Below are positions 3,749-34,396 of a stretch of DNA of 41,621 bases, in pieces. Origin of the DNA: Candidatus Eiseniibacteriota bacterium (GTDB lineage: Bacteria; Joyebacterota; Joyebacteria; Joyebacterales; Joyebacteraceae). The DNA is taken from contig JAUWBY010000001.1 of assembly GCA_030609605.1 (NCBI GenBank), forward strand, positions 1-41,621, written 5' to 3'. The notes below the pieces were generated by a model. That model had not been told where the DNA came from and ran no database searches. It saw nothing but the letters and a program-made list of their open reading frames with translations. How positions within the stretch are numbered: position 1 is the stretch's first letter; each line of letters opens with the position of its first letter. The position numbers were made by a program, and so were the translations under genes.

Positions 3749-3785
3749 GCGTAGATTCTCGCTCCCCCCCTTACGGAGGCAGGAC

Positions 3786-6909: not shown

Positions 6910-7800
6910 ATGTGGGAGCAGATAAGCAGCAATAAGGTGAAGTCAGGTTTCTTGGTCGGGTTCTTCGTCGTCTTCGTGGTGTTCCTCGGTTGGCTCTTCG
7001 GGAGGACAACCGTCTGGGGCCCTGCGGCGCCCATACTCGCGGCCGTCATCGCAGGCGGTGCGGCATGGGGCAGCTACTACAACAGCGACAGGATGGTTCT
7101 CGCCATCAGCCGGGCCAAGTCCGCTGAGAAGGAGGATCACCCTCATCTCTACCACTCGGTAGAGGGACTGGCCATCGCCGCCGGAATACCTACCCCGAAG
7201 CTCTACATCATAGACGACACGGCCCCCAATGCGTTCGCCACCGGGCGCAACCCCGAGCACGCCGCGATAGCCGTGACGACGGGGCTTCTGCAGAAGCTCA
7301 ACCGCGTCGAACTCGAGGGCGTTATCGGTCACGAGATGTCTCACATCGCGAACTACGATACGCTCCTCATGACACTCACTGTTGTCATGGTCGGCACCGT
7401 TGCACTCGTGAGTGATTGGATGCTGAGAAGCTTCTTGTGGGGTGGACGTAGGAAGAGAAGCTCGTCGGGAGGAGGTCAGATCGGAGTCATCCTTCTCGTT
7501 GTAGCGCTCGTGCTCGCGATTCTCTCACCACTCATCGCGCAGCTCATAAAGCTCGCCATATCGAGAAGACGCGAGTTCCTGGCCGACGCAAACGGCGCGC
7601 TACTGACGCGGTACCCGGAAGGACTGGCGAGCGCACTTGAGAAGATAGCGTCCGACCGGGAGCCATTGGAGGTCGCGAACAAGGCGACCGCCCACCTCTA
7701 CATCTCCAACCCTCTCAAGGGACAGAAGGGCGCCTTCAACAAGCTCTTCTCAACCCACCCTCCGATGGAACAGAGGGTCACGCTACTGAGAGAGATGTAG
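6910..7800 (+). CDS. htpX: M48 family zinc metalloprotease HtpX
   Basis: HEMSH zinc motif (GVIGHEMSHIANYD), TM segments on both sides, and REFLADANGA...THPPMEQR at the C-terminus. Confidence 0.85.
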   Translation: MWEQISSNKVKSGFLVGFFVVFVVFLGWLFGRTTVWGPAAPILAAVIAGGAAWGSYYNSDRMVLAISRAKSAEKEDHPHLYHSVEGLAIAAGIPTPKLYIIDDTAPNAFATGRNPEHAAIAVTTGLLQKLNRVELEGVIGHEMSHIANYDTLLMTLTVVMVGTVALVSDWMLRSFLWGGRRKRSSSGGGQIGVILLVVALVLAILSPLIAQLIKLAISRRREFLADANGALLTRYPEGLASALEKIASDREPLEVANKATAHLYISNPLKGQKGAFNKLFSTHPPMEQRVTLLREM

Positions 7801-14299: not shown

Positions 14300-14370
14300 C
14301 TATGCGCCCACAGCCCAATCGGGCGCACCTATGCGCCCACAGCCCAATTGGGCGCACCTATACGCCCACC
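14300..14370. repeat. About 2.4 tandem copies of a 29-bp unit, each containing an internal palindrome, in the pmbA/DUF2207 intergenic gap
   Basis: CTATGCGCCCACAGCCCAATCGGGCGCAC (14300-14328) and CTATGCGCCCACAGCCCAATTGGGCGCAC (14329-14357), then a partial copy. Unit 2 contains the perfect 12-bp palindrome GCCCAATTGGGC. Confidence 0.9.
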
Positions 14371-19912: not shown

Positions 19913-20482
19913 CTAGATTCCCATTCCGCTGGGAACGGGCCGTGGAGGAACCGTGCCGCCGGGCATACACATCATGCGCCCACGGCCACCCATTGCGCCA
20001 CCCGGGCCGCGGTTCATGCCACCGCGACCGCCCATACCGCCATGACCCATCTGCATCCCGAAGCCCTTATCAAACAGCAACTTCTGGTCATCCGTCAGGA
20101 TCTTTCGGACCGCAACGTGCTGACGGATCCTTAGCTTCATCATCTCGGCGCGCTCTTTGGAGATGTCATCAATCATGCGCTCGAGCTTCCCGAAGTCGGG
20201 TTCGTCGCCCGTTATCAATTCGCGCATCTCAAGATGCATGACCTTGATCCGGTTGGAAAGCTCAACACGTTGTTCGTCGAAGCCGCTCCGGATCTCCTGC
20301 ATCTTCTCCTGCTGCGCCTCTGTGAACGCCGGCATCGCGCCCGGCCCCATCGCCGGACCGCCGCGCATGCCGCCGCCCATGGCTCCGCTCTGGAAACCTC
20401 TACCCGCGGTCGCCGGCACGGCTGCCATTGCTGCCATCGCCAGAGCGAGCATTACTACTATGAGGCCTTTCTTCCTGCTCAT
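19913..20482 (-). CDS. Spy/CpxP/ZraP-family periplasmic protein (LTXXQ motif, periplasmic heavy-metal-sensor type) with Gly/Met/His-rich ends
   Basis: Signal peptide (MSRKKGLIVVMLALAMAAMAAVPATA). Two LTXXQ-type motifs (FTEAQQEKM, LTDDQKLLF) flank a helical core. The tails are rich in G, M and H. Confidence 0.7.
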   Translation of the reverse strand: MSRKKGLIVVMLALAMAAMAAVPATAGRGFQSGAMGGGMRGGPAMGPGAMPAFTEAQQEKMQEIRSGFDEQRVELSNRIKVMHLEMRELITGDEPDFGKLERMIDDISKERAEMMKLRIRQHVAVRKILTDDQKLLFDKGFGMQMGHGGMGGRGGMNRGPGGAMGGRGRMMCMPGGTVPPRPVPSGMGI

Positions 20483-20616
20483 CGTCTTCTCCCTTCGGAA
20501 GTGGGAGGTCTCGCCTCCCGGATTCTTCTACTGTTTGGCTGTCCTTCCGGCCGGCATCGTCAGCCGCATGATATCTCGGAATGCCGGCCGGAGGAACTCT
20601 CTCACACCCCTTCTAC

Positions 20617-20632
20617 AGCAACCGAGGTGCCA
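20617..20632 (-). promoter_or_regulatory. Sigma54 (-24/-12) promoter for the Spy/ZraP-like gene
   Basis: Minus strand reads TGGCAC-CTCGG-TTGCT, a perfect match to TGGCAC-N5-TTGCW. Located in the 329-bp gap after the sigma54-dependent response regulator gene and about 135 nt upstream of the ATG at 20482. Confidence 0.65.
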
Positions 20633-20811
20633 ATCGTGTCGGAACGATGTAGAGCTCTCGTCTGTGCGACATAACATCTGATGGAACAGAACGTTACGCG
20701 ACTAGCTTTTTCGGATGAGACGTGCCCTGAAGACCAGGGAAGGACCTTGGCGTGAAGGAATTACCCACTTCGGGAGGTAGAGCGGCTTGGAGGTGCGCAG
20801 AATCTGCGCGG

Positions 20812-22152
20812 TCAGGATTCTATCTCGTACTCTCTGATCTTGTTCTGGAGAGTTCTGCGCGAAATGGCCAGGATCTTCGCCGCGTGAGTTCTGTTGCCCT
20901 CAGTCTGCGCGAGGGTCTTGATGATGATGTCACGCTCCATTTCGCGGATCGTCATACCCGTCTTTTCTCCGTCCACCTCGGAGTCTGGAATCGCCTGAAG
21001 CTTCGCTGGAAGTTGCTCGGGGAATACTGTCTCGCCACGAGATAGAACCACGGCACGGTGTATGGCGTTCTCGAGCTCCCGGACGTTCCCGGGCCAGTCG
21101 TAGTTCATCATGATTCGCATCGTCTTGGGTGACATCCTCTTCGGCTTCGTGCCTTTCTCGGCGTGCTTCTTGAGAAAGTGCTCCACGAGGAGCGGTATGT
21201 CCTCCTTGCGGTCCCGGAGCGGCGGTATGACAATGGTCACGACATTGAGTCGGAAATAGAGGTCTTCACGGAAGCTGCCGTCGACGACGGCAGCATCGAG
21301 ATCCCGATTGGTCGCGGCCACTATGCGGACGTCGACAGTGATATCGACCGATCCGCCCACGCGTTGAAGGGTGTGATCCTGCAGAAAACGGAGCAATTTG
21401 GCCTGTAGCTCGGACGACATGTCGCCGATCTCGTCCAGGAAGATGGTCCCGCCCACCGCCAGCTCGAACCGCCCCCGCTTCTGCCGACCAGCGCCGGTAA
21501 AAGCGCCCTTCTCGTGGCCGAACAACTCGCTCTCGAGAAGACCTCCTGGAATGGCCGAACAGTTCACGGCCACAAACGGCTTGTGTTCGCGTGGGCTCGC
21601 CCGGTGTACCTCGTGCGCTATGAGCTCCTTGCCTGTCCCGCTCTCGCCGAGGATGAGAACCGCGGCATCGCTCGTGGCGACGCGGCGAGTCAGCTCCAAC
21701 ACCTCCCGCATTGCGACGCTCGTCCCGATGATCTCACTCGAGGGCTTGATCTCGGGCGGCTTCTCCTCAGTCACCCCGGACGACTCATCGGTGAATCTCG
21801 ACACAACCGAACGGACCTCGTCGATATCTATCGGCTTCGTGATGTAGTCAAATGCCCCGAGCTTCATGGCCTCGACCGCGGTCTCAACCGACGCATAGGC
21901 CGTCATCATGATGATGCCGCAGTCCGGACTCGCCTTCTTCATCCGTCCCAGAGCCTCAATGCCATTGATACCCGGCATCCGGATGTCCATTATGACCAGG
22001 TCGTGAAACCCGCCCGCCAACTTCTCGACGCCGCTCTCCCCGTCGGGAGCGACCTCTACCTCATGACCATCGCTCTCGAGCACGGCCTTGAGAAGCTCAC
22101 GCACACTCGACTGGTCATCAACCACAAGAATTCTGAGGCGATTCTCCACCAT
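20812..22152 (-). CDS. Sigma54-dependent response regulator (NtrC/ZraR/AtoC-type: REC + AAA+ + Fis HTH)
   Basis: REC domain (ILVVDDQ...[11 protein letters not shown]), Walker A GESGTGKE, the GAFTGA sigma54-contact motif, Walker [19 protein letters not shown] and a C-terminal HTH ([17 protein letters not shown]). Start set at ATG 22152 (AGGGGAG SD); the ORF is open to GTG 22197. Confidence 0.9.
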
Positions 22153-22223
22153 CCGGACATGCTCCCCTATGCGATCCGATGCCGGCTGCTCCGGCACTCC
22201 ACGCTGCCCTGACAGGGCAGCCG

Positions 22224-24071
22224 CTAGCGCGAACCTGTACCCGGTTCCCCGCGCGAAGCTCTGAACACCATAGAGAACGTAGTCCCCTTCCCCTTTTCGC
22301 TCACGACATGGATGTGCCCGGCGTTCTGCTCGACGAGTCGCGAGACTATCGTCAATCCAAGACCGGTCCCGGTCGGCTTCGTCGTGTAGAACGGTTCGAA
22401 CAGCTTCGTGAGGTCCTCCTCGCTCATTCCCTCGCCTGTATCTGCGATATCGATGGCGACCTGCTCCGGCTGTTCGCCTGCGGTCGCGGCGGTCGCGCTA
22501 TCCTCGGGAACAACGATTCTCGTCTTCACCGTAAGCGTCCCGCCGTCCCTCATCGCTTCCATGCCGTTCAGAAGCACGTTGAGGAGCGCCTGGCGCACCT
22601 GCCTCGAATCCACGAGGATGCGCGGTAGCCCGTCAGGCAGGTCGGTGACGATTCTGACGTTCTTGAAATCCGCGTCCTCCGACACGAGCGAGAGCGCGTC
22701 CTCGACGATCGCGTTCGTATCGCCCGGACGGATCTCGGCAACGACGGGCTTCGCGAAATCAAGCAGCTCCTGCACAACTCGATCGAGTCGCTCAACCTCC
22801 TCGATCATGATATCGGAGTATCGCTCTTCCTCGGAGCCCGGGCTGAACTTGCCGCGAAGGAACTGCGCGAATCCCTTGATCGAGCTGAGGGGATTCCGCA
22901 CTTCGTGGGCCACGCCGGCCGCCAGCCTGCCAAGGGAGGCCAGGTGACGCCCTCGCTCCAGCTCGGCCTTGAGCGCCTCGATCTCGCGCAGGTCCTGGTA
23001 GAGCAGAACCGTTCCCGCTCGCTCACCGTCCTCGTCACGGAGTAGCGATGCGCTGACCGAGACGGGGATCTTCTCCCCCGCTACCACGGCTGTCGCCTCC
23101 ACTTCAGCTATGTCCTTCTCACCCCGAAGCACCAGATCCACTCCCGCCCGCTCGGGACCCGGCTCGAGACCGGCCACGCCATCAAGGCCTCGGCCGGCGA
23201 CCTTCGCGTTGCCCAGTCCGAACAGGGCACGTGCCCGGGAGTTGATGGTCACAACACGACCGTCGGCGTCGACGGATACCAGCCCGTTCGCCATGCTCTC
23301 TATGACGTTGTCCGTATATGTGCGCATATTCGCAAGCGCCGTCTGCGTCGAGCGGTATGCGGACACCACGAAGAGGAAGTAGATGGCCGCTCCGCCAACG
23401 ATGGTCAGGATAATGCCGAGCAGGACAGTGCGATTGCGAGAGAGAAGGAACGTCTTCTCTATCTCCGTGGGGTCGAGCGCCACGACGCCGTAGAGACGTG
23501 TTGGATGCAACAGGTCGATCGGCCTCCCCAGAAGCTCGGACAGGCGTCTGGCGACAGCCTCTATGTTACAGGGCGGCCTCATCCTGTGGCCGAACCTCGG
23601 TGGCGGCCTCTCACAGAGCATCGCGGGATGTATGTCGAAGGCCGTCACGTACTGTTGAAGAGTATGCCCGCCAATAGTGACGCGCTTCCTGCGGATGGGT
23701 GACGCATCAGGCCCATCTTGCCCCGGCAACCACCCGATGTGAGGCGCTCCGACCATTGCAGTATCGCTGTGTGCGACGACGGTTCCGTCGAAATCGAGAA
23801 GGGCCAGGTACTCAGCCTGGCCGCGGTTGGCAGCCTCGGAGAGAAAGAACTCAAGACGTGACAGCTGCCATCGTGGCGAGACGAGTTCGGTTCTGAGATC
23901 GGTACTCAGGAACATGAGCATGGCCCCGGCCTTGCGCTCCAGTCCGTCCGCCACGTGCTGCCGCCCCCTATCGATGTCGCGCATCGAAGTGAACACGACC
24001 ACGGCCGCGACGACGAAAACCCCGATGATGATCGACGTGATGGGAATGTAAGTGTTTCGGAACGTTCTCAA
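22224..24071 (-). CDS. Sensor histidine kinase (two TM segments with periplasmic loop, PAS, HisKA, HATPase_c)
   Basis: H-box HEVRNPLSSIKGFAQFL, N-box LLNVLLNGMEAM, G-boxes DTGEGM and GTGLGL, and two TM helices flanking a region of about 190 aa. The annotated start is a TTG at 24071, so the start is uncertain. Confidence 0.85.
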   Translation of the reverse strand: MRTFRNTYIPITSIIIGVFVVAAVVVFTSMRDIDRGRQHVADGLERKAGAMLMFLSTDLRTELVSPRWQLSRLEFFLSEAANRGQAEYLALLDFDGTVVAHSDTAMVGAPHIGWLPGQDGPDASPIRRKRVTIGGHTLQQYVTAFDIHPAMLCERPPPRFGHRMRPPCNIEAVARRLSELLGRPIDLLHPTRLYGVVALDPTEIEKTFLLSRNRTVLLGIILTIVGGAAIYFLFVVSAYRSTQTALANMRTYTDNVIESMANGLVSVDADGRVVTINSRARALFGLGNAKVAGRGLDGVAGLEPGPERAGVDLVLRGEKDIAEVEATAVVAGEKIPVSVSASLLRDEDGERAGTVLLYQDLREIEALKAELERGRHLASLGRLAAGVAHEVRNPLSSIKGFAQFLRGKFSPGSEEERYSDIMIEEVERLDRVVQELLDFAKPVVAEIRPGDTNAIVEDALSLVSEDADFKNVRIVTDLPDGLPRILVDSRQVRQALLNVLLNGMEAMRDGGTLTVKTRIVVPEDSATAATAGEQPEQVAIDIADTGEGMSEEDLTKLFEPFYTTKPTGTGLGLTIVSRLVEQNAGHIHVVSEKGKGTTFSMVFRASRGEPGTGSR

Positions 24072-24251
24072 GAAGGACTCCGGGTCGACGGTCTTTCGGT
24101 CCCTTCATACATTGCCCGCGACGGCCAACAGGCCGCCGCAGAGCGTGGCAAAGCAGTGTTTTATTAGACACCACGAAAGCTGCGAAGAGCAAGAACAATC
24201 GCGGCAAGCGCGAGGCGCGGACAGCAGGTTCAGTTCAGAAGATGTGGTGTA

Positions 24252-25064
24252 TCAGTACTCACGGAGCGTCCCGGTGACCCTGGCGTGATCGCAACCGCGC
24301 CTGAGGACCACGAGACCCACCACCACCGAGACGGCAGCCGAAATGAGGAGAAAAACGAGATGCGTGGCGGTGCCGGCGTCGTGAACCGGCCCGCGAAACC
24401 CAGCGCGGGCCACCGGAAGAACGTGCGACGTCGGAAGCATCCACGCCACTCTCCGCAACCAGACCGGGAGAAGAGATACGGGGAAGTAGACACCGCCCAA
24501 CAGCCCCGAGAGCGCTCCAAACGCCCACGACACAGGTTCTCCCTCTTTGAAGACCGTCGTGAGTCCGGCCGAGATGAATCCGATCCCACACATCGTCAGA
24601 GAATAGAGGACCACTGCCGTCAGCGCCGGGAGTGTGACCGGAATCGTCACACCCAGAAGACCTGAGACAATCACAGCCAGTCCGAGCGCCACCCCCTGAG
24701 CGATCATGATCTCCGACAGCCCCGCAAGGAGCACGAGCAAGGCAACGGGCCTGCCGCTCGATACGAGTTGCTCGAACGTGCCCTGTAGTTGTTCCCGCCT
24801 GACCGTCTTACGGAAGGCATGCAGCCCGGAAGCAGAAACACCGTGCACGACTACGCCGATGAGTGCGAAGGCCGTGTAGGTCATTCCCACTTCGTCCTCG
24901 AAACCGGACCCCGCCAGCTCTACGACCCTTCCCACAAACAGGAAGGTGATGGCAGACAGGAGAAGTGATGCAAATCCCAGAAACAGTTTTGACCGGTAGC
25001 TTGCATAGGTCGCGACGCTCCTGACGACAAACGCCCAGCCGAGATTGATGACATCCCGCGACAT
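24252..25064 (-). CDS. ABC-2 type transporter permease
   Basis: ATG at 25064 overlaps the ATPase stop by 1 nt (TGATG). About six TM helices in 270 aa, which is ABC-2-like topology. The longer ORF to 25259 is Arg-rich and non-protein-like. Confidence 0.65.
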   Translation of the reverse strand: MSRDVINLGWAFVVRSVATYASYRSKLFLGFASLLLSAITFLFVGRVVELAGSGFEDEVGMTYTAFALIGVVVHGVSASGLHAFRKTVRREQLQGTFEQLVSSGRPVALLVLLAGLSEIMIAQGVALGLAVIVSGLLGVTIPVTLPALTAVVLYSLTMCGIGFISAGLTTVFKEGEPVSWAFGALSGLLGGVYFPVSLLPVWLRRVAWMLPTSHVLPVARAGFRGPVHDAGTATHLVFLLISAAVSVVVGLVVLRRGCDHARVTGTLREY

Positions 25065-25780
25065 CACGAGTGCTCCACAGACGGCTGAGCGGCCACCGGC
25101 TGCTGCAACAGCTCGGGCGACGAGATGGAATCGGATCCGGGTGATGGCAACTCGACGACCTGGTCGCAGAAGCGCGATCCCTCCATTCTGTGAGTCGCCA
25201 TCACTAGAGCGCACCCGTCGCGCAGTCTTCGCTCGATCGCGGAACACACGAGAGCGCACCCGGTGACGTCCAGAGAGGCGAACGGTTCGTCAAGAAGAAG
25301 GAGCGATGGAGTGCCGAGGAAAGCTCTCGCCACGGCCAGCCGCGCGCCCGTTCCCCTGGACAGTCGCCCGGCGCGCATATTCAGCCATGGTTCCAGATCC
25401 AGTTCGTCCACAACGCAGTCCATGGCAGAGGACAGCTCTCTGCCCCAAAGCCCGGCCAGACGCCCGAAGAACGTGAGATTCATCCTTGCGGTCAGCCTTA
25501 CGTAGAACGAGCGTTCGGCGCCCAGAGAGACTCCGACACGGCGTCGAACATGCGTCGATGCGTGCCTCACGTCGAAGCCGCAGACGATGGCCGACCCGCA
25601 CGATGGCATCAGGAGACCGGCCGCGATACGGAGCGCCGTGCTCTTCCCGGCTCCGTTCGGACCGACGAGAGCGATCGCCTCCCCCGCTGCTACCGTGAAG
25701 CTGAGATCTCTCAGTGCGTCCAGCCGTTGCCCGCGACGCCGGAACTGCTTCCCGACATCGGAGAACTCCACGATCCTCAT
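25064..25780 (-). CDS. ABC transporter ATP-binding protein
   Basis: Walker A GPNGAGKST, signature-like LSRGTGARL, Walker B LLLLDEPF, H-loop ATHR. ATG at 25780 has a GGAGAGG SD. Confidence 0.85.
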   Translation of the reverse strand: MRIVEFSDVGKQFRRRGQRLDALRDLSFTVAAGEAIALVGPNGAGKSTALRIAAGLLMPSCGSAIVCGFDVRHASTHVRRRVGVSLGAERSFYVRLTARMNLTFFGRLAGLWGRELSSAMDCVVDELDLEPWLNMRAGRLSRGTGARLAVARAFLGTPSLLLLDEPFASLDVTGCALVCSAIERRLRDGCALVMATHRMEGSRFCDQVVELPSPGSDSISSPELLQQPVAAQPSVEHS

Positions 25781-25817
25781 CGGTTCCTCTCCGTCGATCC
25801 GATGGATCTTCCCCCCC

Positions 25818-27206
25818 TCATCGCTCCTCCTCATCCACCACCGTGCGGAACTCCCACGCCCCGACACTCCGTGTGCTCGCGCTCACGATGATGAGATCAT
25901 CTTGGCCGTCGCCGTTCACGTCGCATACGAGCACATCGGATGCCCCCACGCCATCGGGAAGAGCGACGATCGCTTCGCCTGTCCCACGCGCCAGCACTCC
26001 GACGCGTCGCTCGTGCCAAGCCACGATACACGGCACGACGCCTCCGTCCAATCCGGCGGCCGCCAGTTCGACGAGCACCGGCGCATCGTAGACATCACCC
26101 CCGATATCGAGTTCCCAGACACGCTTCTTCCACTTGGGCGTCGCCGCATACAACAGGCCGTCACTGCAGCCAAAGATGAGTTCACTGCCGGTTGAACCGT
26201 CCACGTCGACAGACAGCATCTCGCCTATCGGTTCCCCGGTCCTTGCGATCGCGTTTCTGATGAAGCGCGGCAGCCGTCTCTTTGCGAGCACTTCCTTGTG
26301 AGACTCGTTCCCGAACCGCATGCGAACCAGTTCATCACCCGTCTCCCCATCTAGGACAACAAGTGCGCCGGCGAAGCAACCGACGGCGACTTCGTTGTAT
26401 CCGTCACCCGTCAGATCCGCAACAACGGGCAGATTGCTGGCGACACCTTCAGGGTACATGCGACCCTTCTCTCCCAGCTTCGAGTCCCAGAGATCCTCGC
26501 CGGCCGATGAGACACAGGTGAGGACGTTTGCGTTCTCCACAACCAGGATCTCTGACGTTCCGTCCCCGTCGATGTCGGCGCAAATGAGTTTCGACAATCC
26601 ATCCCCAAACACGCTGCCGTCGTGCGGAGTCGTTCTTCTCCAACGCTCGACCAATCCGGGAAGTCCTATGGCCACAAGATCGTCGCCCTCATCGCCGCGG
26701 ACGGTCAGAACGATGACCTGCTCTCCGTATGTCGTTCGCACAATACCAACGTCACGAACCTTCCCCGATAGCTCACACCCAGCGAGAGCCTCGCCCGTCG
26801 CACCGCTCTGAACCAGGACCCTGTGCCCAGAACACCTCACGACCTCCTCCCCCGGGGACGCGAGGAGATCGGCCGTGAGCGTGCCGGCCGGATCCGTGTA
26901 TGCGACACGCCAGATCTCAGCTCCGGATTCAAGCTCGAGGGCGACCACTGTGGAGGATTCCCTCCCCTTTCCCATTGTCACGAGAACCTCGCGAATCCCG
27001 TCCCCGTCGAGATCCACAAGAAGCGCGTCGGCGATGTTTGCCCCTGAAATATCGAGGCTCGTCGCCCACAGCTCGCCTAGAGTCACTGCGCCGGCATCAA
27101 CCTGCGCCGCGGTGAGTGCCCCGGCGCACAGGATTGCCGCGATGGTGACAACACATGTCGATCGCCTCGCTACGCCCTCCGCAGAACACCCACCCACGGC
27201 TCTCAT
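25818..27206 (-). CDS. Secreted FG-GAP/VCBS-repeat beta-propeller protein
   Basis: Signal peptide, then five DxDxDG-type repeats: VDLDGDGIRE, ADIDGDGTSE, ADLTGDGYNE, VDVDGSTGSE, CDVNGDGQDD. The AGGAGGA SD overlaps the stop of the preceding peptide gene. Confidence 0.7.
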   Translation of the reverse strand: MRAVGGCSAEGVARRSTCVVTIAAILCAGALTAAQVDAGAVTLGELWATSLDISGANIADALLVDLDGDGIREVLVTMGKGRESSTVVALELESGAEIWRVAYTDPAGTLTADLLASPGEEVVRCSGHRVLVQSGATGEALAGCELSGKVRDVGIVRTTYGEQVIVLTVRGDEGDDLVAIGLPGLVERWRRTTPHDGSVFGDGLSKLICADIDGDGTSEILVVENANVLTCVSSAGEDLWDSKLGEKGRMYPEGVASNLPVVADLTGDGYNEVAVGCFAGALVVLDGETGDELVRMRFGNESHKEVLAKRRLPRFIRNAIARTGEPIGEMLSVDVDGSTGSELIFGCSDGLLYAATPKWKKRVWELDIGGDVYDAPVLVELAAAGLDGGVVPCIVAWHERRVGVLARGTGEAIVALPDGVGASDVLVCDVNGDGQDDLIIVSASTRSVGAWEFRTVVDEEER

Positions 27207-27215
27207 CTCTTCCTC

Positions 27216-27383
27216 CTAGTAGTCGACGAGACAGACGTCTCTGTTGCCGCAGCTGCCGAAATCGAACCCGCACTGATCGACAGAACCGCAGTCTCCCCAG
27301 TCAATGAAGATGTAGCACAGGAGCGAATCCGGTGCTGCACCCGACGAATCTGAACCGCTGTTCGCCAGCCTGAGATGATTCAT
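27216..27383 (-). CDS. Putative RiPP precursor peptide B (55 aa)
   Basis: ATG at 27383 with GGAAGGAG upstream. Translation MNHLRLANSGSDSSGAAPDSLL-CYIFIDWGDCGSVDQCGFDFGSCGNRDVCLVDY. Paralogous to peptide A, with five Cys each followed by Asp 3-5 residues later. Confidence 0.55.
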   Translation of the reverse strand: MNHLRLANSGSDSSGAAPDSLLCYIFIDWGDCGSVDQCGFDFGSCGNRDVCLVDY

Positions 27384-27420
27384 CCCTTGATCTCCTTCCC
27401 GCACGCGGCTGTCCATACAC

Positions 27421-27591
27421 CTACCCCGTGTCAATGAAGCAGTTATCATGCTGCTCACATCCGCACCCTGCATCCAGGATCCAGCAGAGATCCGACGAAG
27501 GACACTGCGAGTAATCGACGAAACATATCTCGCTCACGTCCGACTTCGCCGCGACTTCAGCCGCCCCTCTGATGCCGTTCGCCAGCTTCAT
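27421..27591 (-). CDS. Putative RiPP precursor peptide A (56 aa)
   Basis: ATG at 27591, 11 nt after the radical SAM gene stop, with GGTGAGG upstream. Translation MKLANGIRGAAEVAAKSDVSEI-CFVDYSQCPSSDLCWILDAGCGCEQHDNCFIDTG. Six Cys residues. Confidence 0.55.
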   Translation of the reverse strand: MKLANGIRGAAEVAAKSDVSEICFVDYSQCPSSDLCWILDAGCGCEQHDNCFIDTG

Positions 27592-27602
27592 GTGCTTCAA
27601 CC

Positions 27603-30116
27603 TCACCACCCCCTCTCCCGCACATTCCCTTTGCCACCTGCTTCTTCCCGCGGGCGATCCCGCACATTTGCCCCGCCACCTGCTTCCTCCCGCGGGCGAT
27701 CTCCCACACTTGCCGCGCCGCCTGCCTCGCTTCGCCCTCGTCCACGCAAGCGTCTCCTCTGCTCCTCAGGCAACCCCGCGTATAGCCACATTGAAAGCTC
27801 AATGATCCTCCTCCTGACGGAGCACCGCACCGCATCGTGCCCCGACGCTTCTCCCGGCATCGTATCAAGATCGTGATGGCAGGGTCCTCCGCACAGGTCG
27901 TGCGCCCAGCAGTCCAGACAAGCGGACGATGCCGCTCGCAGCTTCTTGAGCAACGACGTGATCGCCCGGCGGTCGATGCCGCTTGCCACGTGCCCGACGG
28001 CGAAGCGATCGTCACCTGCGAATCTGTGGCAGAGATAGAGCGTCCCGTCCGTCGCAACAGAGAGATAGCGCGCCCCGGCGCCACACGGAGAATCGCGGCG
28101 AGACCCGCGCGCCAGGAGCGCCATCGGCTCGGTGAAACTGCTCACCGATGGGCGCGAGCCGCTCAACAGTACATCACGTTCCGCTTGGGCAAGCGCTTCG
28201 AACTCAGAGCAGAGCCGCTCCGCGAACCCCCTGCTCATGCTCGATCCGCTCACAGGAGCCAGATGCACGGTGGAAAACCCGAGCCCCGCAAGATGCGCCA
28301 CAAGCTCGGTCAGAGGTTCTGACGACTCCGTCACCGTCGCCCTAACCCCCACGCTGAAACCGGGAGGCAGCTCCGTCAGGTTGCGGACGATACTCGCGTA
28401 GGACCCCTTGCCGTTGCGAAAGCGTCGGTTCGCATCGTGGTCCTCTTCGCAGCCGTCCATGCTGATCAGACAATCGATCCCGAGCTCGGCGAGAAGCCTG
28501 GCGGTGCCGGGAGTGAGCAGTGTTCCATTCGTTGTCATATGGAAACGGATATTCCGCCCCACCTCCGTGGCACGCTCTCGCGCGTAGCGAACGACTGGAC
28601 GAAGCATGTCCGTCGCGAGGAGCGGCTCTCCTCCAAAGAAGATTATCGATATCTCCGGCTCTCCGAACGACTCGCGTATCAGGAGGTCAATAGCCCTGAA
28701 AGCCACGTCCTCCGCCATGGTCTCACCAGCCGCGTTCTCTCTACGACGTCCGGCGCCCGTCTGTGAAGCTGCCAATGTTCCGAGGTAGCAGTAGGTACAC
28801 GAGAGATTGCAGGCGTTGCTCACGTTAAGCGCCAGCGATTTGATGGAGATCTCGATCTCTGAGGCCCGTCTCCCGCTCCGACGGGGCTTCCCCCCCGGCG
28901 CCAATCCCCCGACTTCGGAGATGGCGGTTTGGACGGAGGCAGCGCCGTGGTTGAGTTCGAGGACCGCTCGCTCGGTCACGGGCGCTCTTTTCGCGAGCCA
29001 CCTGATGGTATCTGCCGCGACGGCATCTGCTTCAAAAAGGAAGCCGGACGCGGGATCGAACGCGAATTCCTTTCCGTCCACGCTGAATGTGTGGAGCTCG
29101 CGCCCTGCGAGGATCGCGTGCGCGAGTGAGTCGTCCGGTTCTCGGCCGTTCGGGTTTTCTCCGCGCCCTGGACTGCTCGCGGCGGCCAGCGCCTCGAGTG
29201 AGAGGCGACGGGTCATTCTGGCGTTGCCCGAGGTGGCATCGTGAAGCACAGAGCTCAGGAACTCAGCAAGCTGCGGACAAGGCAGACTCTCAGCTGTACT
29301 GAGAGCCTGCGCATAACACGATTCCATTGTCCCGGTGACTCTCTCAAGAGCACCTGACTCGGCCGCCATCCTGAGAAGACCTCTCGCAGAGAGCTTCTCC
29401 GGAAGCTCCTTGCACCCACTCCACGTGAGGAGCATCCACACGGTCGCCGACGGGCGGCCAGCCGCCAGATCCTCACCAAGATCGACCAGATCATCAGCCA
29501 ACTGGTAACCGGCGTGGTACTCCTCGATGAGTCGCTCCATAGCAGGAAGAAGATCCGGGCGCCCGCCAAGAGTGGCTACCGCGGCGGCGGTAACCTTCAG
29601 CGGTGACATCTTCCTTCCCAGAAGGAGAAGCGTACTGTCGAGTTCATCGTCCCCAACGGCTCTGACGCCTCCCTCCTTGTGATGAACCGACTGTTCCCAC
29701 TCGAGGCTCAAGAAGTACTCGTCCATGAACCGGTCGTAGTGCTGCCAGAATTCGCTCTCCCCCGGGAAGAGCTCAGCGTACAGGCGGACGAACTCGCACA
29801 GACACCTGTCGCAAAAGTCGAGCGCTCTCGGGTCGACGCCCCTTGTGCCGTCCAAGAGCTCGTCCTGCGAGAGGAAATGCGCCGTGGCGAATGCGTTCCC
29901 CAGAGACATGACTCTCGCCGCATCGCCGTCGCCTTCAAAACGGATGCCTTCTACCAGAAGGAATGGGAGAGTAACGGCGATGTTCGTCGATCTGATGCCC
30001 CTGTCCGACATCGCGCTCTCCAATCGAAAGCGACTGACGGACGACTCAAAGCCGGTCGCGACGCGGCGCAATTCCTCTCGCATGTCGAATCGGCTTTGCG
30101 TGCTGGATGACGACAC
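27603..30116 (-). CDS. Fusion protein: N-terminal polyprenyl-synthase-like (class I isoprenoid fold) domain + RRE-like segment + radical SAM + SPASM domain + repeat tail
   Basis: - aa 78-89: AHFLSQDELLD, FARM-like.
- aa 203-217: GYQLADDLVDLGEDL, SARM-like DDxxD, about 123 aa after the first motif.
- aa 341-375: HTFSVDGKEFAFDPASGFLFEADAVAADTIRWL, a PqqD/RRE-like N-extension common in peptide-modifying rSAM enzymes.
- aa 435-442: CNLSCTYC (CX3CX2C, nt ~28791-28814).
- GGEPLL follows.
- SPASM: CGAG...LYLCH plus CLDCWAHDLCGGPC (CX2CX5CX3C).
- Start uncertain: GTG 30116, ATG 30083 or ATG 30011. Confidence 0.85.
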   Translation of the reverse strand: MSSSSTQSRFDMREELRRVATGFESSVSRFRLESAMSDRGIRSTNIAVTLPFLLVEGIRFEGDGDAARVMSLGNAFATAHFLSQDELLDGTRGVDPRALDFCDRCLCEFVRLYAELFPGESEFWQHYDRFMDEYFLSLEWEQSVHHKEGGVRAVGDDELDSTLLLLGRKMSPLKVTAAAVATLGGRPDLLPAMERLIEEYHAGYQLADDLVDLGEDLAAGRPSATVWMLLTWSGCKELPEKLSARGLLRMAAESGALERVTGTMESCYAQALSTAESLPCPQLAEFLSSVLHDATSGNARMTRRLSLEALAAASSPGRGENPNGREPDDSLAHAILAGRELHTFSVDGKEFAFDPASGFLFEADAVAADTIRWLAKRAPVTERAVLELNHGAASVQTAISEVGGLAPGGKPRRSGRRASEIEISIKSLALNVSNACNLSCTYCYLGTLAASQTGAGRRRENAAGETMAEDVAFRAIDLLIRESFGEPEISIIFFGGEPLLATDMLRPVVRYARERATEVGRNIRFHMTTNGTLLTPGTARLLAELGIDCLISMDGCEEDHDANRRFRNGKGSYASIVRNLTELPPGFSVGVRATVTESSEPLTELVAHLAGLGFSTVHLAPVSGSSMSRGFAERLCSEFEALAQAERDVLLSGSRPSVSSFTEPMALLARGSRRDSPCGAGARYLSVATDGTLYLCHRFAGDDRFAVGHVASGIDRRAITSLLKKLRAASSACLDCWAHDLCGGPCHHDLDTMPGEASGHDAVRCSVRRRIIELSMWLYAGLPEEQRRRLRGRGRSEAGGAASVGDRPREEAGGGANVRDRPREEAGGKGNVRERGW
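27613..27740. repeat. About three tandem 42-bp units at the 3' end of the radical SAM fusion gene (14-aa GANVRDRPREEAGG repeats)
   Basis: Read directly: ...GCCACCTGCTTCTTCCCGCGGGCGATCCCGCACATTTGCCCC / GCCACCTGCTTCCTCCCGCGGGCGATCTCCCACACTTGCCGC..., with a more degenerate third copy. Confidence 0.8.
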
Positions 30117-30312: not shown

Positions 30313-30451
30313 ACAGAGTGCGGCGTGGCCTCATGACCACGCCGCGCTCTGTCACAACTGTCTACTTGGATTACACACTGCACTGCTCTATGGCTCCCGA
30401 GCATAGAGCAGCCGGCAGGCGGACTGTGGAAGAGCGTTCGCGCCTGCCGGC
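30313..30451 (-). other. Three consecutive strong hairpins/inverted repeats in the non-coding leader region
   Basis: - 30313-30352: 16-bp stem with one mismatch (ACAGAGTGCGGCGTGG / CCACGCCGCGCTCTGT).
- 30383-30411: perfect 10-bp arms CTGCTCTATG / CATAGAGCAG.
- 30411-30451: perfect 10-bp GC-rich arms GCCGGCAGGC / GCCTGCCGGC with a 21-nt loop. Confidence 0.6.
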
Positions 30452-30873
30452 CTCGTGGGCTGGATCCCATCCTTGGGAGGAGAGTGCTTCTGACCAAGGT
30501 CGCCGTTCGGATGGAATCCGGGTGGAGAGCAGTTGGTGTTGCCGCGTCGGTGTCACTCCTTGCTGTTGCCGGTTCTTCTTCTCTATTCCCTACAGCTACC
30601 GCCAGGTGCCAGGAGATTCGGTAGCTGTCTAGATTCAGCCGAGGAACGGCGAGGCTATTCCGATGAGCAGGATTACTATTATCACTTTGACTCTCGCCGC
30701 GCTCGGCATGGCTACTCTCTCTGTTCTATGTCATCTCCCCGATGAATCCGGAGAGCCTGTGGTTCCTGGAAGGGAGGAGGGCCATAGAGCGACCGGACTC
30801 GCCCCCCTGATAATTTCACTCACGGCCACACCCCCTTCCAAGTCCTGTTGTCAAAGTTCTAACCCCTCTAAGG

Positions 30874-30888
30874 GCAGGGATCGTGCCA
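30874..30888 (-). promoter_or_regulatory. Sigma54-type -24/-12 promoter motif, distal, facing the RiPP-like operon
   Basis: Minus strand reads TGGCAC-GATCC-CTGC. The -24 TGGCAC is perfect, GG-N10-GC spacing is correct, and the -12 is CTGC versus TTGC. Confidence 0.45.
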
Positions 30889-31200
30889 GTTCGTGCTGAT
30901 TGACTCCCCATTCGTGCACCTGTGCAGTACCGCTAACCCGCTTACTGGCCGTAAGTTACGCTGCTGACGATTTAGGCGGCCAACACTCAGCAAAAGGAAC
31001 GGTGGCAGGTTCTTGACACCGCACGACCGATGCAGATGGGATTCCTGGTAACTTCTCCCTACAGCAGTGGTTACGCGACCGTCACGTTTGTGACGCTCTG
31101 TCGAAGATCTGACGGTCTCGGAAGCCTTCCGGTGACGCGCGGATGCCTGTCGAAGACCTGTCGGTGCTGATGCGGCCGGCCGGACAGCTCGGAGCGACAA

Positions 31201-31297: not shown

Positions 31298-34200
31298 CTA
31301 TCCGATTCCGTGCTTCTTCATCTTCGCGTGCAGGCCTGTGCGCGACATCCCCAGGATCTGAGCTGCCTGCTGCTTGTTCCACCCCGTGCGATCCAGCGCT
31401 TCGAGAATCCGGCTTCGTTCCAACGTAACGACCTCATCCTTGAGCGACCGGGGGCGACTCTCATCGAGTTCGCTACCGGCTCCACCTTCAGCGCGAACCT
31501 TCAGTTCGGGGCTCATCTTGTCGATGCCGATGGTCTCGCCGCTCTTGGTGAGCGCGACACCGCGACGGACCTCATTCTCCAACTCCCGCACGTTGTTCCC
31601 CCGCCATCCATACCTGAGGAAGAGCTCCTTCACTTCCCGGCTGAACCCCACGATCGCTTTTCCCTCACGCTTCGCGTAGTACTCAAGGAAGTGATCCATC
31701 AGAGCCGGGATATCTTCAGGGCGGTCCCTCAGTGGTGGAAGCTCAACTGTAATAGTGCAGAGTCTGTAGAAGAGGTCTCGCCTGAATCCGCCGTTCTCCA
31801 CCTCCTGCCGAAGGTCCTTGTTCGTGGCGGAGATGACACGGGCGTTGCTCGTCCTCGTAACGCTTTCTCCTACCCTCCGGAACTCGCCATTCTGGAGGAA
31901 TCTCAGAAGCTTCACTTGAAGCTCGGGACTCATCTCCCCAATCTCATCGAGGAAGAGCGTTCCATCCGCCGCAGCCTCGACAAGGCCCTGGCGATCCCGG
32001 TCGGCATCCGTGAAAGCGCCGCGGACGTGGCCGAAGAGCTCGCTCTCCTGGAGATTCGGAGCGATGGCCCCGGAGTTCAGAGCCACGAACCTCCCGGTCG
32101 CCGTCCTGCTGCCGGAGTGAATGGCCTTCGCGATCAGTTCCTTGCCCACACCTGATTCGCCACGTATTAGAACCGGCACGTGGCTGTCCTTCAGCTGCTC
32201 GACGGTCGCGAGTATCTGGATCATCTCGGGACTTCGGGTGATAAGCCCGACGGTCTCCGCTGAGTCAAGGAGTCTGTCGGCCTCCTCCCCTGTCGACCGC
32301 GCGACGATTGACCCACCGACTCGAGAATGCATGAGGCCGAGCATCCGACCGACAGCGCCGACGAACTCCACGTCGCTCTGTGTGAAAGCAACTGATCTGT
32401 CGGTCCGGGAGCGGTCTACGTACACAAGGTAGACTGGTTTGCTGTCGAGGCCGACTTCCGCCGGTATCAGCGCAAGCGCGCCGACTTCGGATGGAGTGAA
32501 AGCGCCGTCTGAGTGTCCATTGCTGACGACTAGAGGACGCGAGTGGCCCCGTTTCGAAACGGTCGTGCGCACAAAGCGGCATGCGTCCGAGACTCCTCGT
32601 CCCGTTCTGTCGACAGACGTCACCACCGACGGCGTCCCTCCGTCCACAACCTGAAGGAGGACCAGCCGGTCGACGGACAGCGCACCTGCCAACTCCCCGG
32701 CGAAGCTATGCAGATCGTCGGGGCTCGGTTCGGCCGTCTCGAGAAATCTATAGCCCTCTGCAATCAGTGCGTACCGACCCCGGCGCGCGATTCCTGCGTC
32801 AGCCAGAGCCACATCCAGTTCCATGAGTGCGGCATCGATCTCGGCGAGACCGTGGCAGTCGTGCGCCACCTCAAACCTGAGTCTTGCACTCTCCAACCAC
32901 CTGCGCGCGCGATCCGGCAATCCGCTCGCCTTGAGCGCCTTGCCGCGTTCGAACTCACATCGCGCCACCCAGTTCGGGAGGCCGATGCGCGCAAAGGCTG
33001 CGGCCGCGGACGAAAGCCGGGCCTCTATGAGATCGATCGGCGGTTCGTCACCAGTCGACGATTCCCTGAGACCAATGCCTTCCGCGAGCGCTGCCCTTGC
33101 CAGCTCGAACGATTCCCCAATGCGACGCAGTATCTCCTCGGCCCTATGGATGAGAACCTCGGCAGTCGTCCGTTCACCCTTGGCGTAGCAGACGCTGGCC
33201 AGCACGCGGAGTGTTGCACCCTCTTCGAGGCTGTCGTTGATCTCGCGCGTGAGCTTGATGCCGTCCGAGCAGTCACGCTCGGCCTCGTCGAACCGACCGA
33301 GTTCCATGTAGACCTCGGCGCGCCGTCTCAGAACCTCACCGACGACATCGCTGTTCGACGAAAGCCTGTACGCGCACCCGAGAGCTCGATTGAGGCTCCT
33401 CAGCGCCTGCTCGTGCTCGCCGCGGTCCATCTCCAAATGGCCGATGAACTCCAAAGCCAGAGCTTCAGCCCTCAGGTACCCCTTCTCCTGGCTTGCAGAA
33501 AGGGCGTTCTGGAAAAGTCTCTGTGCCTCGCCCCACTCACGCCGTATACGGAGGATGTTACCCAGTGCGGACTCCGCTGCCACGAGGCCACGAGTCGCAC
33601 CGATCCGCCCGTAGAGGCTGCGCGCTTCGTTCAGCTTCTCCTCCGCTTCGCTCCAGCGGGAGAGCTTGTAGAGGATGATACCGAGGTTGGTAAGACGGTC
33701 GGCGATCGCCATCGTGTGACCGAGCTTCCGGTCGATGGTGAGAGCGTTCTCGATGTACTCAAGCGCTCCGTGGAAGTCGCCCGACCGCTTGGCCAACACA
33801 CCGAGGTTGTTGTAGGCGGAGGCGAGTCCGGCTTCATCGCCAAGACGCTTCTGTGTTACCAGGTAGTCAGTGAAATAGTCGCGCGCCGCCTTGATGTTGC
33901 CCAGCTCAGCGTTTGCGATGCCGAGTACCTTGCCTGCCTCCGCCAGAAGCGGACTCTCGGCCCTCGTTTTCAGAATCTCGTAGGCCTTCTGGGCCGCCCG
34001 CAGCGCCTCATCGTAACGACCGCTCTCGATCTCGACGCGGGCGAGCACGACGTTCGCTTCAGCCCACGCTGATCCATCATCCTCGCTGAGATCGAGATCG
34101 TCCAGCTTCGCGCAGTAGCGCCTGGCGTCATCGTAGCCGCCGAGCCCCAGGTAGCACTTCGCGATGTTGACCAGGAGACCCGCAGACTCAGGGTCGGTGA

Positions 34201-34396
34201 GCTTCTCACGAAGCTCACCGGCCTCGGTCCGTTCGAAATAGCTCAGCGCGTCAGTGTAGCTGTCGGATTCGAGATAGACATCGCCCAGGCGCATGGCCGC
34301 GACTGCGGCGTCTCTGCCGCTCCGCGATTCGAGCGCTTTCTCGAACGCTTTCAACATCTCGCGTTCCGGCGCACTGTCATTTCTCTTGTTGCTCAT
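31298..34396 (-). CDS. Sigma54-dependent transcriptional activator with a large N-terminal TPR array and central sensory region (TPR + GAF-like + AAA+ + Fis HTH), 1032 aa
   Basis: The N-terminal ~480 aa carry repeated TPR-like A..Y......G....A...... helix pairs. AAA+ domain: Walker A GESGVGKE, GAFTDA (a GAFTGA variant), Walker B LFLDEIGEM, RVISATNKDL, LPPLRDRPEDI. C-terminal HTH: WNKQQAAQILGMSRTGL. Confidence 0.9.
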   Translation of the reverse strand: MSNKRNDSAPEREMLKAFEKALESRSGRDAAVAAMRLGDVYLESDSYTDALSYFERTEAGELREKLTDPESAGLLVNIAKCYLGLGGYDDARRYCAKLDDLDLSEDDGSAWAEANVVLARVEIESGRYDEALRAAQKAYEILKTRAESPLLAEAGKVLGIANAELGNIKAARDYFTDYLVTQKRLGDEAGLASAYNNLGVLAKRSGDFHGALEYIENALTIDRKLGHTMAIADRLTNLGIILYKLSRWSEAEEKLNEARSLYGRIGATRGLVAAESALGNILRIRREWGEAQRLFQNALSASQEKGYLRAEALALEFIGHLEMDRGEHEQALRSLNRALGCAYRLSSNSDVVGEVLRRRAEVYMELGRFDEAERDCSDGIKLTREINDSLEEGATLRVLASVCYAKGERTTAEVLIHRAEEILRRIGESFELARAALAEGIGLRESSTGDEPPIDLIEARLSSAAAAFARIGLPNWVARCEFERGKALKASGLPDRARRWLESARLRFEVAHDCHGLAEIDAALMELDVALADAGIARRGRYALIAEGYRFLETAEPSPDDLHSFAGELAGALSVDRLVLLQVVDGGTPSVVTSVDRTGRGVSDACRFVRTTVSKRGHSRPLVVSNGHSDGAFTPSEVGALALIPAEVGLDSKPVYLVYVDRSRTDRSVAFTQSDVEFVGAVGRMLGLMHSRVGGSIVARSTGEEADRLLDSAETVGLITRSPEMIQILATVEQLKDSHVPVLIRGESGVGKELIAKAIHSGSRTATGRFVALNSGAIAPNLQESELFGHVRGAFTDADRDRQGLVEAAADGTLFLDEIGEMSPELQVKLLRFLQNGEFRRVGESVTRTSNARVISATNKDLRQEVENGGFRRDLFYRLCTITVELPPLRDRPEDIPALMDHFLEYYAKREGKAIVGFSREVKELFLRYGWRGNNVRELENEVRRGVALTKSGETIGIDKMSPELKVRAEGGAGSELDESRPRSLKDEVVTLERSRILEALDRTGWNKQQAAQILGMSRTGLHAKMKKHGIG

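Follow-up and report, generated by a model that had tools for sequence, protein, structure and literature searches.

A predicted prenyltransferase–radical SAM fusion enzyme and its Cys/Asp-rich precursor peptides in a six-gene operon of Candidatus Eiseniibacteriota

Introduction

The radical S-adenosylmethionine (SAM) enzyme PapB joins Cys to the beta-carbon of Asp in Cys-Xn-Asp motifs (n = 0-6) of its precursor, and a conserved Asn in the precursor leader is important for binding by the leader-peptide recognition domain (RRE) (PMC9413430). The peptide QhpC carries three Cys-Asp/Glu thioethers and a quinone derived from Cys and Trp, and partners a beta-propeller subunit (PMC8172795). Prenylation, by PalQ, of a Trp of a peptide that is made by ribosomes and modified after translation (a RiPP) has been demonstrated experimentally at indole C3; the residue landmarks of PalQ are D89/D93 in the first Asp-rich motif (FARM), Q197, and D200/D204 in the second Asp-rich motif (SARM), and a D200A/D204A mutant retained activity (PMC10853753). 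A 2026 review puts ComQ, PalQ, and ChrPC's P domain in a group of peptide prenyltransferases termed "trans-IDS-like" (IDS, isoprenyl diphosphate synthase), all characterized examples of which modify tryptophan, and names the Gln just before SARM as a determinant of indole (Trp) recognition (PMC13290415). As far as that review describes the work of Hubrich et al. (2024), ChrPC is a prenyltransferase-terpene cyclase fusion with a trans-IDS-like P domain that acts on an internal Trp (PMC13290415). Here we analyze a 41,621-nucleotide (nt) stretch of DNA from a Candidatus Eiseniibacteriota bacterium (assembly GCA_030609605.1, contig JAUWBY010000001.1, positions 1 to 41,621; referred to as the window), in which a six-gene operon at 24252-30116 encodes one polypeptide that unites a PalQ/ComQ-type domain with an RRE-radical SAM/SPASM maturase, followed by two small Cys/Asp-rich peptides, a beta-propeller protein, and an ATP-binding cassette (ABC) exporter.

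Based on profile matches, structure models, and analogy with the systems above, we propose with a probability of roughly 60% that the fusion enzyme is a bifunctional maturase, which would hold the precursor leader by its RRE, install up to five Cys-Asp thioethers per peptide, and prenylate a Trp, and whose product the ABC-2 pump would deliver to the propeller protein. An earlier model-made reading of the same DNA from its letters and open reading frames (ORFs) alone (the sequence-only reading) had taken the operon for an undescribed, ranthipeptide-like RiPP system. "Undescribed" stands as far as we searched: neither Pfam nor NCBIfam has a model for the peptides or for the N-terminal domain of the enzyme, a literature search of incomplete coverage found no paper describing a prenyltransferase-radical SAM fusion system, and the 2026 prenylation review (PMC13290415) does not mention radical SAM. 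In public annotation the enzyme is only a "radical SAM protein" or "SPASM domain-containing protein", and the peptides are "hypothetical". Both catalytic modules are known kinds of enzymes; what is new is that they are fused, together with the family of precursors, the partner propeller, and the control by a leader and a small ORF. The present analysis adds to the sequence-only reading the importance of the Trp, a sigma-54 promoter with an activator gene, and the leader RNA with its 24-aa ORF.

The radical SAM half of the fusion enzyme

Residues 340-790 of the fusion enzyme have their best NCBIfam matches in PapB (5e-76) and QhpD (9e-76), followed by the nif11-peptide maturase and the SCIFF maturase (8e-58). 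The solved SCIFF maturase CteB aligns over its full length, RRE included (1.7e-46). Within this segment, aa 341-425 align with the N-terminal region of CteB (5wgg residue 7 onward) and with the QhpD, nif11-maturase, and ScfB profiles from profile position 1-5. The SAM-cluster motif CX3CX2C (C436-N-L-S-C440-T-Y-C443) and seven SPASM cysteines (C678, C696, C733-X2-C736-X5-C742-X3-C746, and C765) are invariant in the 13 fusion enzymes that we compared, a set that includes two enzymes only 24% identical to the window enzyme in the prenyltransferase-type domain. The PapB model (NF047865) is covered at profile positions 2-325 of 330 with a score of 256 bits against a cut-off of 340, while the QhpD model (TIGR03906) scores 255 bits against 453 and the SCIFF maturase model (TIGR03974) 196 bits against 425. 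By sequence, the enzyme is a relative and not a member of the PapB family.

The gene content is that of a ranthipeptide-type system, with CX3CX2C, the SPASM cysteines, an RRE, and adjacent Cys/Asp precursors, and aa 340-790 appear to form a PapB/QhpD/CteB-like thioether maturase that would link the Cys sulfur to a beta- or gamma-carbon. A ranthipeptide-like radical SAM/SPASM maturase had been claimed from the letters alone, and the match to PF04055, together with PapB and QhpD, both makers of Cys-Asp/Glu thioethers, as the closest relatives, bears this out. The low-complexity C-terminal tail differs in length among orthologues; its 14-aa repeats are encoded by a 42-bp tandem repeat (2.2 copies) at 27616-27725.

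The N-terminal prenyltransferase-type domain

The sequence-only reading had called the N-terminus prenyl-synthase-like, which holds at the level of remote homology and fold and fails at the level of the Pfam family: the N-terminal 342 aa had no Pfam match at E up to 10, PF00348 (polyprenyl_synt) included, and NCBIfam likewise offered no model covering the domain. A word-indexed search of 5.8 billion proteins returned only two partial Eisenbacteria proteins, and a HMMER profile search of 1.84 billion representatives returned 663 relatives, which are mostly free-standing proteins of ~320 aa. When a 43-member profile of this family was compared with the PDB, trans-prenyl diphosphate synthases were matched at both Asp-rich motifs (E 2e-4 to 1e-2). 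The AlphaFold2 model of the domain (pLDDT 87, pTM 0.87) has octaprenyl, hexaprenyl, and geranylgeranyl diphosphate synthases and the Trp prenyltransferase Ord1 as its top Foldseek matches (probability 1.0, TM 0.55-0.66), and the domain is accordingly modeled with the all-alpha isoprenoid-synthase (trans-IDS) fold.

The signature residues of the domain comprise Q84-D85...D89 in FARM, K169/K174, Q205, D208-D209...D212 in SARM, and D216. All of these and R68 are invariant in the 13 fusions, and the signature is nearly invariant across the 43 family members. Because this invariance extends to the two fusions at 24% identity, it argues that the prenyltransferase-type domain is catalytically constrained and no relic.

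A link to a characterized family comes from a Paenibacillus chungangensis relative (locus L016; 26% identity, E 3e-12), the gene of which adjoins those of a histidine kinase and of a precursor that has an NHLP leader and ends ...PMWE. Judged by its genes, this neighborhood is the PalQ/PalX/PalP architecture as in Paenibacillus alvei, and the L016 protein has D89/D93 at the FARM numbering of PalQ itself. Via the published residue landmarks, those of PalQ map to D85/D89, Q205, and D208/D212 of the window enzyme with equal spacing. The N-terminal domain thus appears to belong to the family of the RiPP Trp prenyltransferase PalQ, and its fold and residues suggest prenyl transfer. Prenyl adducts on the peptides had already been proposed from the letters; the idea gains strength from this apparent family membership and from the single invariant Trp of each precursor.

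Some relatives of the domain have a fusion partner, which is a PapB/QhpD-like radical SAM enzyme, a squalene-hopene-cyclase-like domain, or a methyltransferase. Other architectures (proteins P0020-P0028, P0044, P0057, P0135, and P0151; locus L017 7519-13287) place the domain in radical SAM/SPASM scaffolds without CX3CX2C and in ~1080-aa fusions of a cyclase-like part, the domain, and SPASM. In Streptomyces, the gene for the domain is flanked by an ApyD-like B12 radical SAM gene on one side and by a squalene-hopene-cyclase-like gene on the other. These alternative architectures are largely unexplored RiPP tailoring systems.

The precursor peptides

Downstream of the fusion gene, both pepA and pepB are present in every related locus whose contig extends there (by tblastn and ORF extraction), and both evolve under purifying selection, with dS reaching about 1.9 and pairwise ratios of nonsynonymous to synonymous substitution (dN/dS) between 0.11 and 0.26 in A and between 0.05 and 0.22 in B. 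When A and B are aligned, the five Cys and the five Asp all fall in register, so that the two are paralogues. Adjacency to fusion homologues, selection on the small ORFs, and a paralogous, Cys/Asp-rich nature had each been put forward in, or as checks on, the sequence-only reading, and each was observed. On this sequence evidence, the two small ORFs are real paralogous precursors.

The start of pepA was initially placed at ATG 27591. A GTG codon at 27606, five codons earlier, gives M-R-L-K-H-M-K-L-A-N-G... and a GTGA overlap with the stop of the fusion gene; because the orthologues, which read M-G-[LM]-K-H-[LM]-K-x-A-N-G, have ATG at this position, pepA most likely starts at the GTG. After its leader (K-H-M-K-L-A-N-G), peptide A has the units C-x2-D, C-P-x2-D, C-W-x2-D, C-x3-D, and C-x2-D, and peptide B, with the leader M-N-H-L-R-L-A-N, has C-x4-D-W-G, C-x3-D, C-x2-D, C-x3-D, and C-L-V-D-Y. 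The leader His and Asn are invariant in the precursors.

Pfam contains no model for either precursor, and NCBIfam at E up to 10 gave no match for either of them, for the distant precursors described below, or for the 24-aa ORF. A profile search matched 135 peptide clusters, and those analyzed are ~55-60 aa long and unnamed or "hypothetical", several coming from Eisenbacteria bins. Among the 120 listed of these 135 clusters, 36 are A-type (CWxxD) and 84 B-type (DWGxC), with no other type, and conservation of the five Cys, the five Asp, and the Trp is at least 98% within each type. At least one Trp is present in 120/120 listed representatives, and exactly one in 115.

Operon organization and distribution

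All six genes are on the minus strand and tightly packed (Table 1). The gaps from the fusion gene through pepA and pepB to the propeller gene are 11, 37, and 9 nt in the sequence (with pepA counted from its ATG), and the ORF coordinates give 37 nt between the propeller and ATPase genes and a 1-nt stop/start overlap between ATPase and permease. The order and gaps given in the sequence-only reading agree with these values, and the Shine-Dalgarno sequence of the propeller gene (TAGGAGGAAG) indeed overlaps the pepB stop, as that reading had it. Pfam and NCBIfam together identify four of the six genes (radical SAM protein, FG-GAP/PQQ-like propeller, ABC ATPase, and ABC-2 permease). A terminator-like hairpin beyond the permease gene probably marks the end of the operon.

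Table 1. Features of the operon and its upstream region (positions in the window; all on the minus strand)
Feature	Position	Strand	Length or part	Basis or remark
TPR + sigma-54 AAA+ activator + HTH_8	31298-34396	minus	1032 aa	NCBIfam aa 712-1031; without receiver domain
Sigma-54 type -24/-12 promoter	30874-30888	minus		TGGCACGATCCCTGC; exact TGGCAC-N5-YTGC
Conserved leader RNA (putative element)	30400-30873	minus	~470 nt	
Hydrophobic small ORF in leader	30635-30709	minus	24 aa	MPSAARVKVIIVILLIGIASPFLG
Terminator-like GC hairpin with T-rich tail, leader end	30320-30345	minus		
Fusion enzyme gene	27603-30116	minus	837 aa	
Trans-IDS-like (PalQ/ComQ-type) domain (predicted)	29157-30116	minus	aa 1-~320	profile, fold, signature residues
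RRE (leader-peptide recognition) domain (predicted)	28842-29099	minus	aa ~340-425	alignment to CteB N-terminus and maturase profiles
Radical SAM core + SPASM	27747-28841	minus	aa 426-790	PF04055
C-terminal low-complexity tail	27603-27746	minus		14-aa repeats
Precursor A	27421-27606	minus	61 aa from GTG 27606 or 56 aa from ATG 27591	
pepA, from ATG	27421-27591	minus	56 aa	ATG 27591
pepB (precursor B)	27216-27383	minus	55 aa	paralogue of A
FG-GAP propeller gene	25818-27206	minus	462 aa	
ABC ATPase (DrrA/NodI-like)	25064-25780	minus		PF00005 6.5e-24; TIGR01188 9e-40
ABC-2 type permease	24252-25064	minus		PF01061 + PF12698; start overlaps ATPase stop by 1 nt
Terminator-like hairpin 3' of permease stop	24199-24213	minus		

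That this arrangement exceeds chance is evident from its recurrence: the locus is syntenic in 29 Eisenbacteria-type loci (14 genome and 15 metagenome loci). A genome scan yielded 13 Eisenbacteria/Effluviviaceae loci, and looking up the peptide matches yielded further loci with a like arrangement. On long contigs the order is sigma-54 activator, fusion gene, pepA, pepB, propeller, ABC, ABC-2, kinase, and regulator. In three metagenome loci (L027, L033, and L039), an A-type precursor appears to lie alone between the fusion and propeller genes; the two-precursor layout is common, not universal.

Two distant clusters, L020 and L022, encode fusions with 24% identity to the window enzyme in the prenyltransferase part and 30-33% in the radical SAM part. 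L022 contains the fusion gene, two paralogous precursors (MKKHIRLINE...CDCEESDKCWLDF...CTVDYT), an FG-GAP/PQQ propeller, an ABC pair, and an Rce1-like CPBP protease, and L020 contains the fusion gene, a second radical SAM/SPASM enzyme, one precursor (...ACDCDSHHTCDSDWCLYG), a tetratricopeptide repeat (TPR) protein, and an Rce1-like protease. The short Cys/Asp precursors of both clusters keep one Trp. Since both distant clusters keep the fusion together with Cys/Asp/Trp peptides, this association is older than the Eisenbacteria clade. In L020 (10261-18280), the second, unfused RRE-radical SAM/SPASM gene overlaps the end of the fusion gene, and a large polyketide synthase gene directly follows the Rce1-like gene.

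Propeller, exporter, and candidate proteases

The propeller protein has Pfam matches to FG-GAP and PQQ_2, and its N-terminus is hydrophobic and signal-like in the window and in orthologues, which supports the earlier description of it as secreted. Its orthologous family is sharply delimited, with 54 matches at or below 1.7e-53 and then a drop to 5e-9. The AlphaFold2 model (pLDDT 88.5) resembles the 8-bladed BamB, PL11 lyases, and PQQ dehydrogenases in Foldseek, with a conserved helical insert at aa ~300-321 and invariant H303 and E325. The protein is thus predicted to be an exported 8-bladed FG-GAP/PQQ-like beta-propeller, and the ATPase and permease are predicted to be ordinary DrrA/ABC-2 exporter components.

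The TldD/PmbA pair that the sequence-only reading had placed near the operon lies at 14370-17088 (minus), and both proteins have all three PmbA_TldD domains. A part for this pair in removing the leader is speculative, as that reading itself had it. Also in the window, ~17-20 kb from the operon, are genes for an Rce1-like CPBP ("CAAX prenyl protease") and an M48 (Ste24/HtpX) peptidase, at 3720-4781 (+) and 6910-7800 (+). An Rce1-like gene lies inside both distant clusters (L020 13283-13942; L022 11757-12383). By family, the Rce1-like and M48 proteins may be candidates for a leader or prenyl-peptide protease; the similarity of the window Rce1-like protease to that of L022 is at the family level only.

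Upstream regulatory region

In every locus with sufficient contig, the gene for a TPR-containing sigma-54 activator (63-96% identity) immediately precedes the fusion gene, with a spacer of 1.0-1.3 kb, and this activator is probably a dedicated regulator of the operon. Within the spacer is an exact sigma-54 type promoter; the pattern TGGCAC-N5-YTGC occurs twice in the window versus 0.26 expected, and at this site TGGCAC and TGC are invariant in 14/14 aligned loci.

The promoter is followed by a conserved leader, which is 70-93% identical in nucleotides across loci whose flanking proteins are 45-67% identical, irrespective of reading frame. In a long hairpin at ~30764-30840 several pairs are changed on both sides, and there are invariant blocks such as GGGGGGCGAGTCCGGTCGCTCT. 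Rfam gave no family for the window at the gathering threshold or for the leader at E up to 10, with noise only (e.g., mir-485). The leader may be a new structured RNA element. It contains a 24-aa ORF that is exactly 75 nt long and open in 14/14 genome loci, with variable sites at synonymous third positions and the C-terminal half invariant in protein; it is the only consistently open leader ORF on either strand. A DNA-pattern scan of metagenomes found the ORF block 15 times, always beside the activator and/or the fusion gene as far as each contig reached, and neither of the distant fusions L020 and L022 has the ORF upstream. Plus-strand leader ORFs at 30533-30745 and 30663-30899 were considered and rejected, given the frame-independent conservation and the lack of any consistently open antisense ORF. 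The terminator-like hairpin at the end of the leader is also present in L004-L007, and L013 has a different hairpin in the equivalent place; it could act in attenuation or terminate a small, separate transcript driven by sigma-54.

Downstream of the operon are genes for a ZraS/AtoS-like kinase (22224-24071, minus), a ZraR/AtoC-like sigma-54 response regulator (20812-22197, minus), and a ZraP/Spy-like Metal_resist/LTXXQ protein (19913-20482, minus), the last with its own exact sigma-54 promoter at 20618-20632. We considered the kinase and regulator as a ComP/ComA-like pheromone sensor and set this aside, as they are ZraS/ZraR-like and followed by the ZraP-like gene with its sigma-54 promoter; 19913-24071 is, on its gene content, probably an envelope-stress module separate from the RiPP operon. 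The ZraS/ZraR-like module stays beside the RiPP operon in related genomes.

Proposed pathway and alternative explanations

In the proposed pathway, transcription would start at the sigma-54 promoter, probably driven by the adjacent TPR-containing activator, and run through the conserved leader that encodes a 24-aa membrane-type mini-protein. One or two precursors of ~55-61 aa would be made, and their leader (K/N-H-[LMI]-[KR]-x-[AL]-N) would be held by the RRE, as homology to CteB, PapB, and QhpD suggests. The radical SAM/SPASM part would then abstract H from the Asp beta-carbon and join it to the Cys sulfur, forming up to five "ranthionine" rings per peptide, mostly within C-X2-4-D units if the closest characterized relatives and the invariant Cys/Asp pattern are a guide. 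With an isoprenyl diphosphate and Mg2+, the trans-IDS-like domain would prenylate the single invariant Trp, in the way of ComQ, PalQ, and ChrPC, a step suggested by the fold, the conserved FARM and Gln-SARM residues, and the invariance of the Trp. The lipidated, stapled peptide would leave through the ABC-2 pump and meet the secreted 8-bladed propeller, which may act as binding partner or in processing or protection.

Several observations weigh against this pathway. All radical SAM matches are under the curated cut-offs, so the acceptor residue and regiochemistry could differ from those of PapB. Many related fusions are without CX3CX2C, and such domain combinations are therefore not always fully catalytic. 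The Trp position differs between the paralogues (C-W in pepA, D-W-G in pepB), and both Trp are internal, whereas PalQ needs a terminal one, although ComQ and ChrPC do modify an internal Trp. No leader peptidase gene is present within the operon. Finally, the hairpin between the leader and the fusion gene means that the sigma-54 transcript may lack constitutive read-through.

The doubts about the N-terminal domain are best expressed as an alternative that we regard as unlikely, namely a plain ranthipeptide system, in which the domain transfers no prenyl group and is a docking or dimerization scaffold or catalyzes some other reaction on the peptide. Pfam does not recognize the domain as a polyprenyl synthase, solved prenyl synthases match it weakly in sequence (E 2e-4 to 1e-2), degenerate modules exist in that relatives of the domain occur in fusions without the radical SAM cluster motif, and the activity left in PalQ D200A/D204A makes motif conservation an imperfect guide. 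Against this alternative, the residues expected for diphosphate/Mg2+ and indole binding are all invariant down to 24% identity and nearly so in the 43 family members, and a Trp is kept in 120/120 analyzed precursor representatives.

A less probable alternative still is a maturation like that of quinohemoprotein amine dehydrogenase (QHNDH), by which the cross-linked peptide, its Trp possibly modified, would be exported to become a bound small subunit or cofactor carrier of the propeller. The operon has an ABC exporter, as the qhp operon has in QhpF; the exported propeller is encoded directly after the precursors, belongs to an orthologous family of its own tied to the locus, and is retained in the distant L022, there beside a subtilisin-family gene. 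QhpD scores as high as PapB, and QhpC is a precedent for thioethers, a modified Trp, and a propeller partner in one system (PMC8172795). Yet the operon has no equivalent of the haem subunit (QhpA) or the flavoprotein (QhpG), the precursors are much shorter than QhpC, and the QhpD equivalog cut-off is missed widely. Moreover, the propeller has eight blades and resembles BamB and PQQ dehydrogenases; neither its top 50 structural matches nor the solved structures that match it by sequence (E up to 10) include a QHNDH beta subunit. Nothing in QHNDH biogenesis corresponds to the prenyltransferase-type domain. As for the notion that the small ORFs are spurious and the locus is just a radical SAM enzyme beside an unrelated transporter, their shortness and the lack of a curated peptide family match might suggest it, but conservation refutes it to the point where we give it almost no weight: dN/dS is 0.05-0.26 at dS up to about 1.9, 135 clusters were matched and the 120 analyzed share an invariant Cys/Asp/Trp pattern, and the ORFs have Shine-Dalgarno sites, tight coupling to their neighbors, and paralogues in register.

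Returning to the bifunctional maturase, we tentatively suggest, at somewhat less than even odds, that the locus represents a new hybrid RiPP class: one prenyltransferase-RRE-radical SAM polypeptide would make a peptide with five Cys-Asp staples and a prenylated Trp, this peptide would be exported to a periplasmic propeller dedicated to it, and a sigma-54 promoter, a structured leader RNA, and a 24-aa membrane mini-protein from the same transcript would gate its production; the product could be an envelope-active signal or antibiotic. If the chemistry is true, this would be the first natural combination of ranthionine cross-linking with ComX/PalQ-type Trp prenylation, and in one enzyme, and peptides that are both lipidated and multiply stapled could be made by a compact route encoded in genes. 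For peptide engineering of this sort, each of the two parent enzyme classes is already in use. The locus also provides a first concrete lead to a natural product of Candidatus Eisenbacteria, a phylum that to our knowledge is known only from metagenomes.

Comparison with known systems

Of the described systems, PapB/PapA (freyrasin, Paenibacillus polymyxa) has the same RRE + radical SAM + SPASM layout in its maturase, which is the best NCBIfam match of the window enzyme. The PapA core likewise consists of repeated Cys-Xn-Asp units after a short leader with a conserved Asn; PapA has six CX3D units, whereas the window peptides have five units of mixed X2, X3, and X4 spacing. To this the window adds the invariant Trp, the 320-aa prenyltransferase-type domain, the propeller, the ABC-2 pump, and sigma-54 control. 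QhpD/QhpC is equal in radical SAM score and shares the themes of Cys-Asp/Glu thioethers, a modified Trp, a propeller partner, and export. It differs in that the window operon has no haem or flavoprotein partner genes, much shorter peptides, a different (8-bladed) propeller, and a prenyltransferase-type domain where QHNDH has quinone-forming enzymes.

With CteB/SCIFF (thermocellin), the likeness lies in the full-length alignment to CteB, RRE included, and in the leader K-H-[ILM]-[KR]-x-[AL]-N, which resembles the SCIFF leader. The SCIFF precursor model (TIGR03973), however, did not match the window precursors at E up to 10, the window enzyme does not reach the cut-off of the SCIFF maturase ScfB, and the presumed acceptors in the window are Asp-rich as opposed to the C-terminal Cys cluster of SCIFF.

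PalQ/PalX of Paenibacillus alvei and ComQ/ComX of Bacillus share with the window the predicted trans-IDS fold, the FARM and SARM Asp, the pre-SARM Gln, all at matching spacing, and a conserved Trp in the RiPP precursor. PalQ and ComQ are free-standing proteins of ~300 aa, in contrast to the window domain, which is fused to a radical SAM maturase. Further, PalX carries its Trp at the C-terminus and has a leader of the NHLP type, whereas the Trp of the window peptides is internal, and neither ComX nor PalX is thioether-bridged. As far as the review describes ChrPC, its P domain is fused to a second RiPP-tailoring domain, as is the domain in the window, and relatives of the window domain are fused to or encoded beside squalene-hopene-cyclase-like domains in a ChrPC-like manner. 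The partner in ChrPC is a cyclase, whereas in the window it is a predicted thioether-forming radical SAM/SPASM enzyme.

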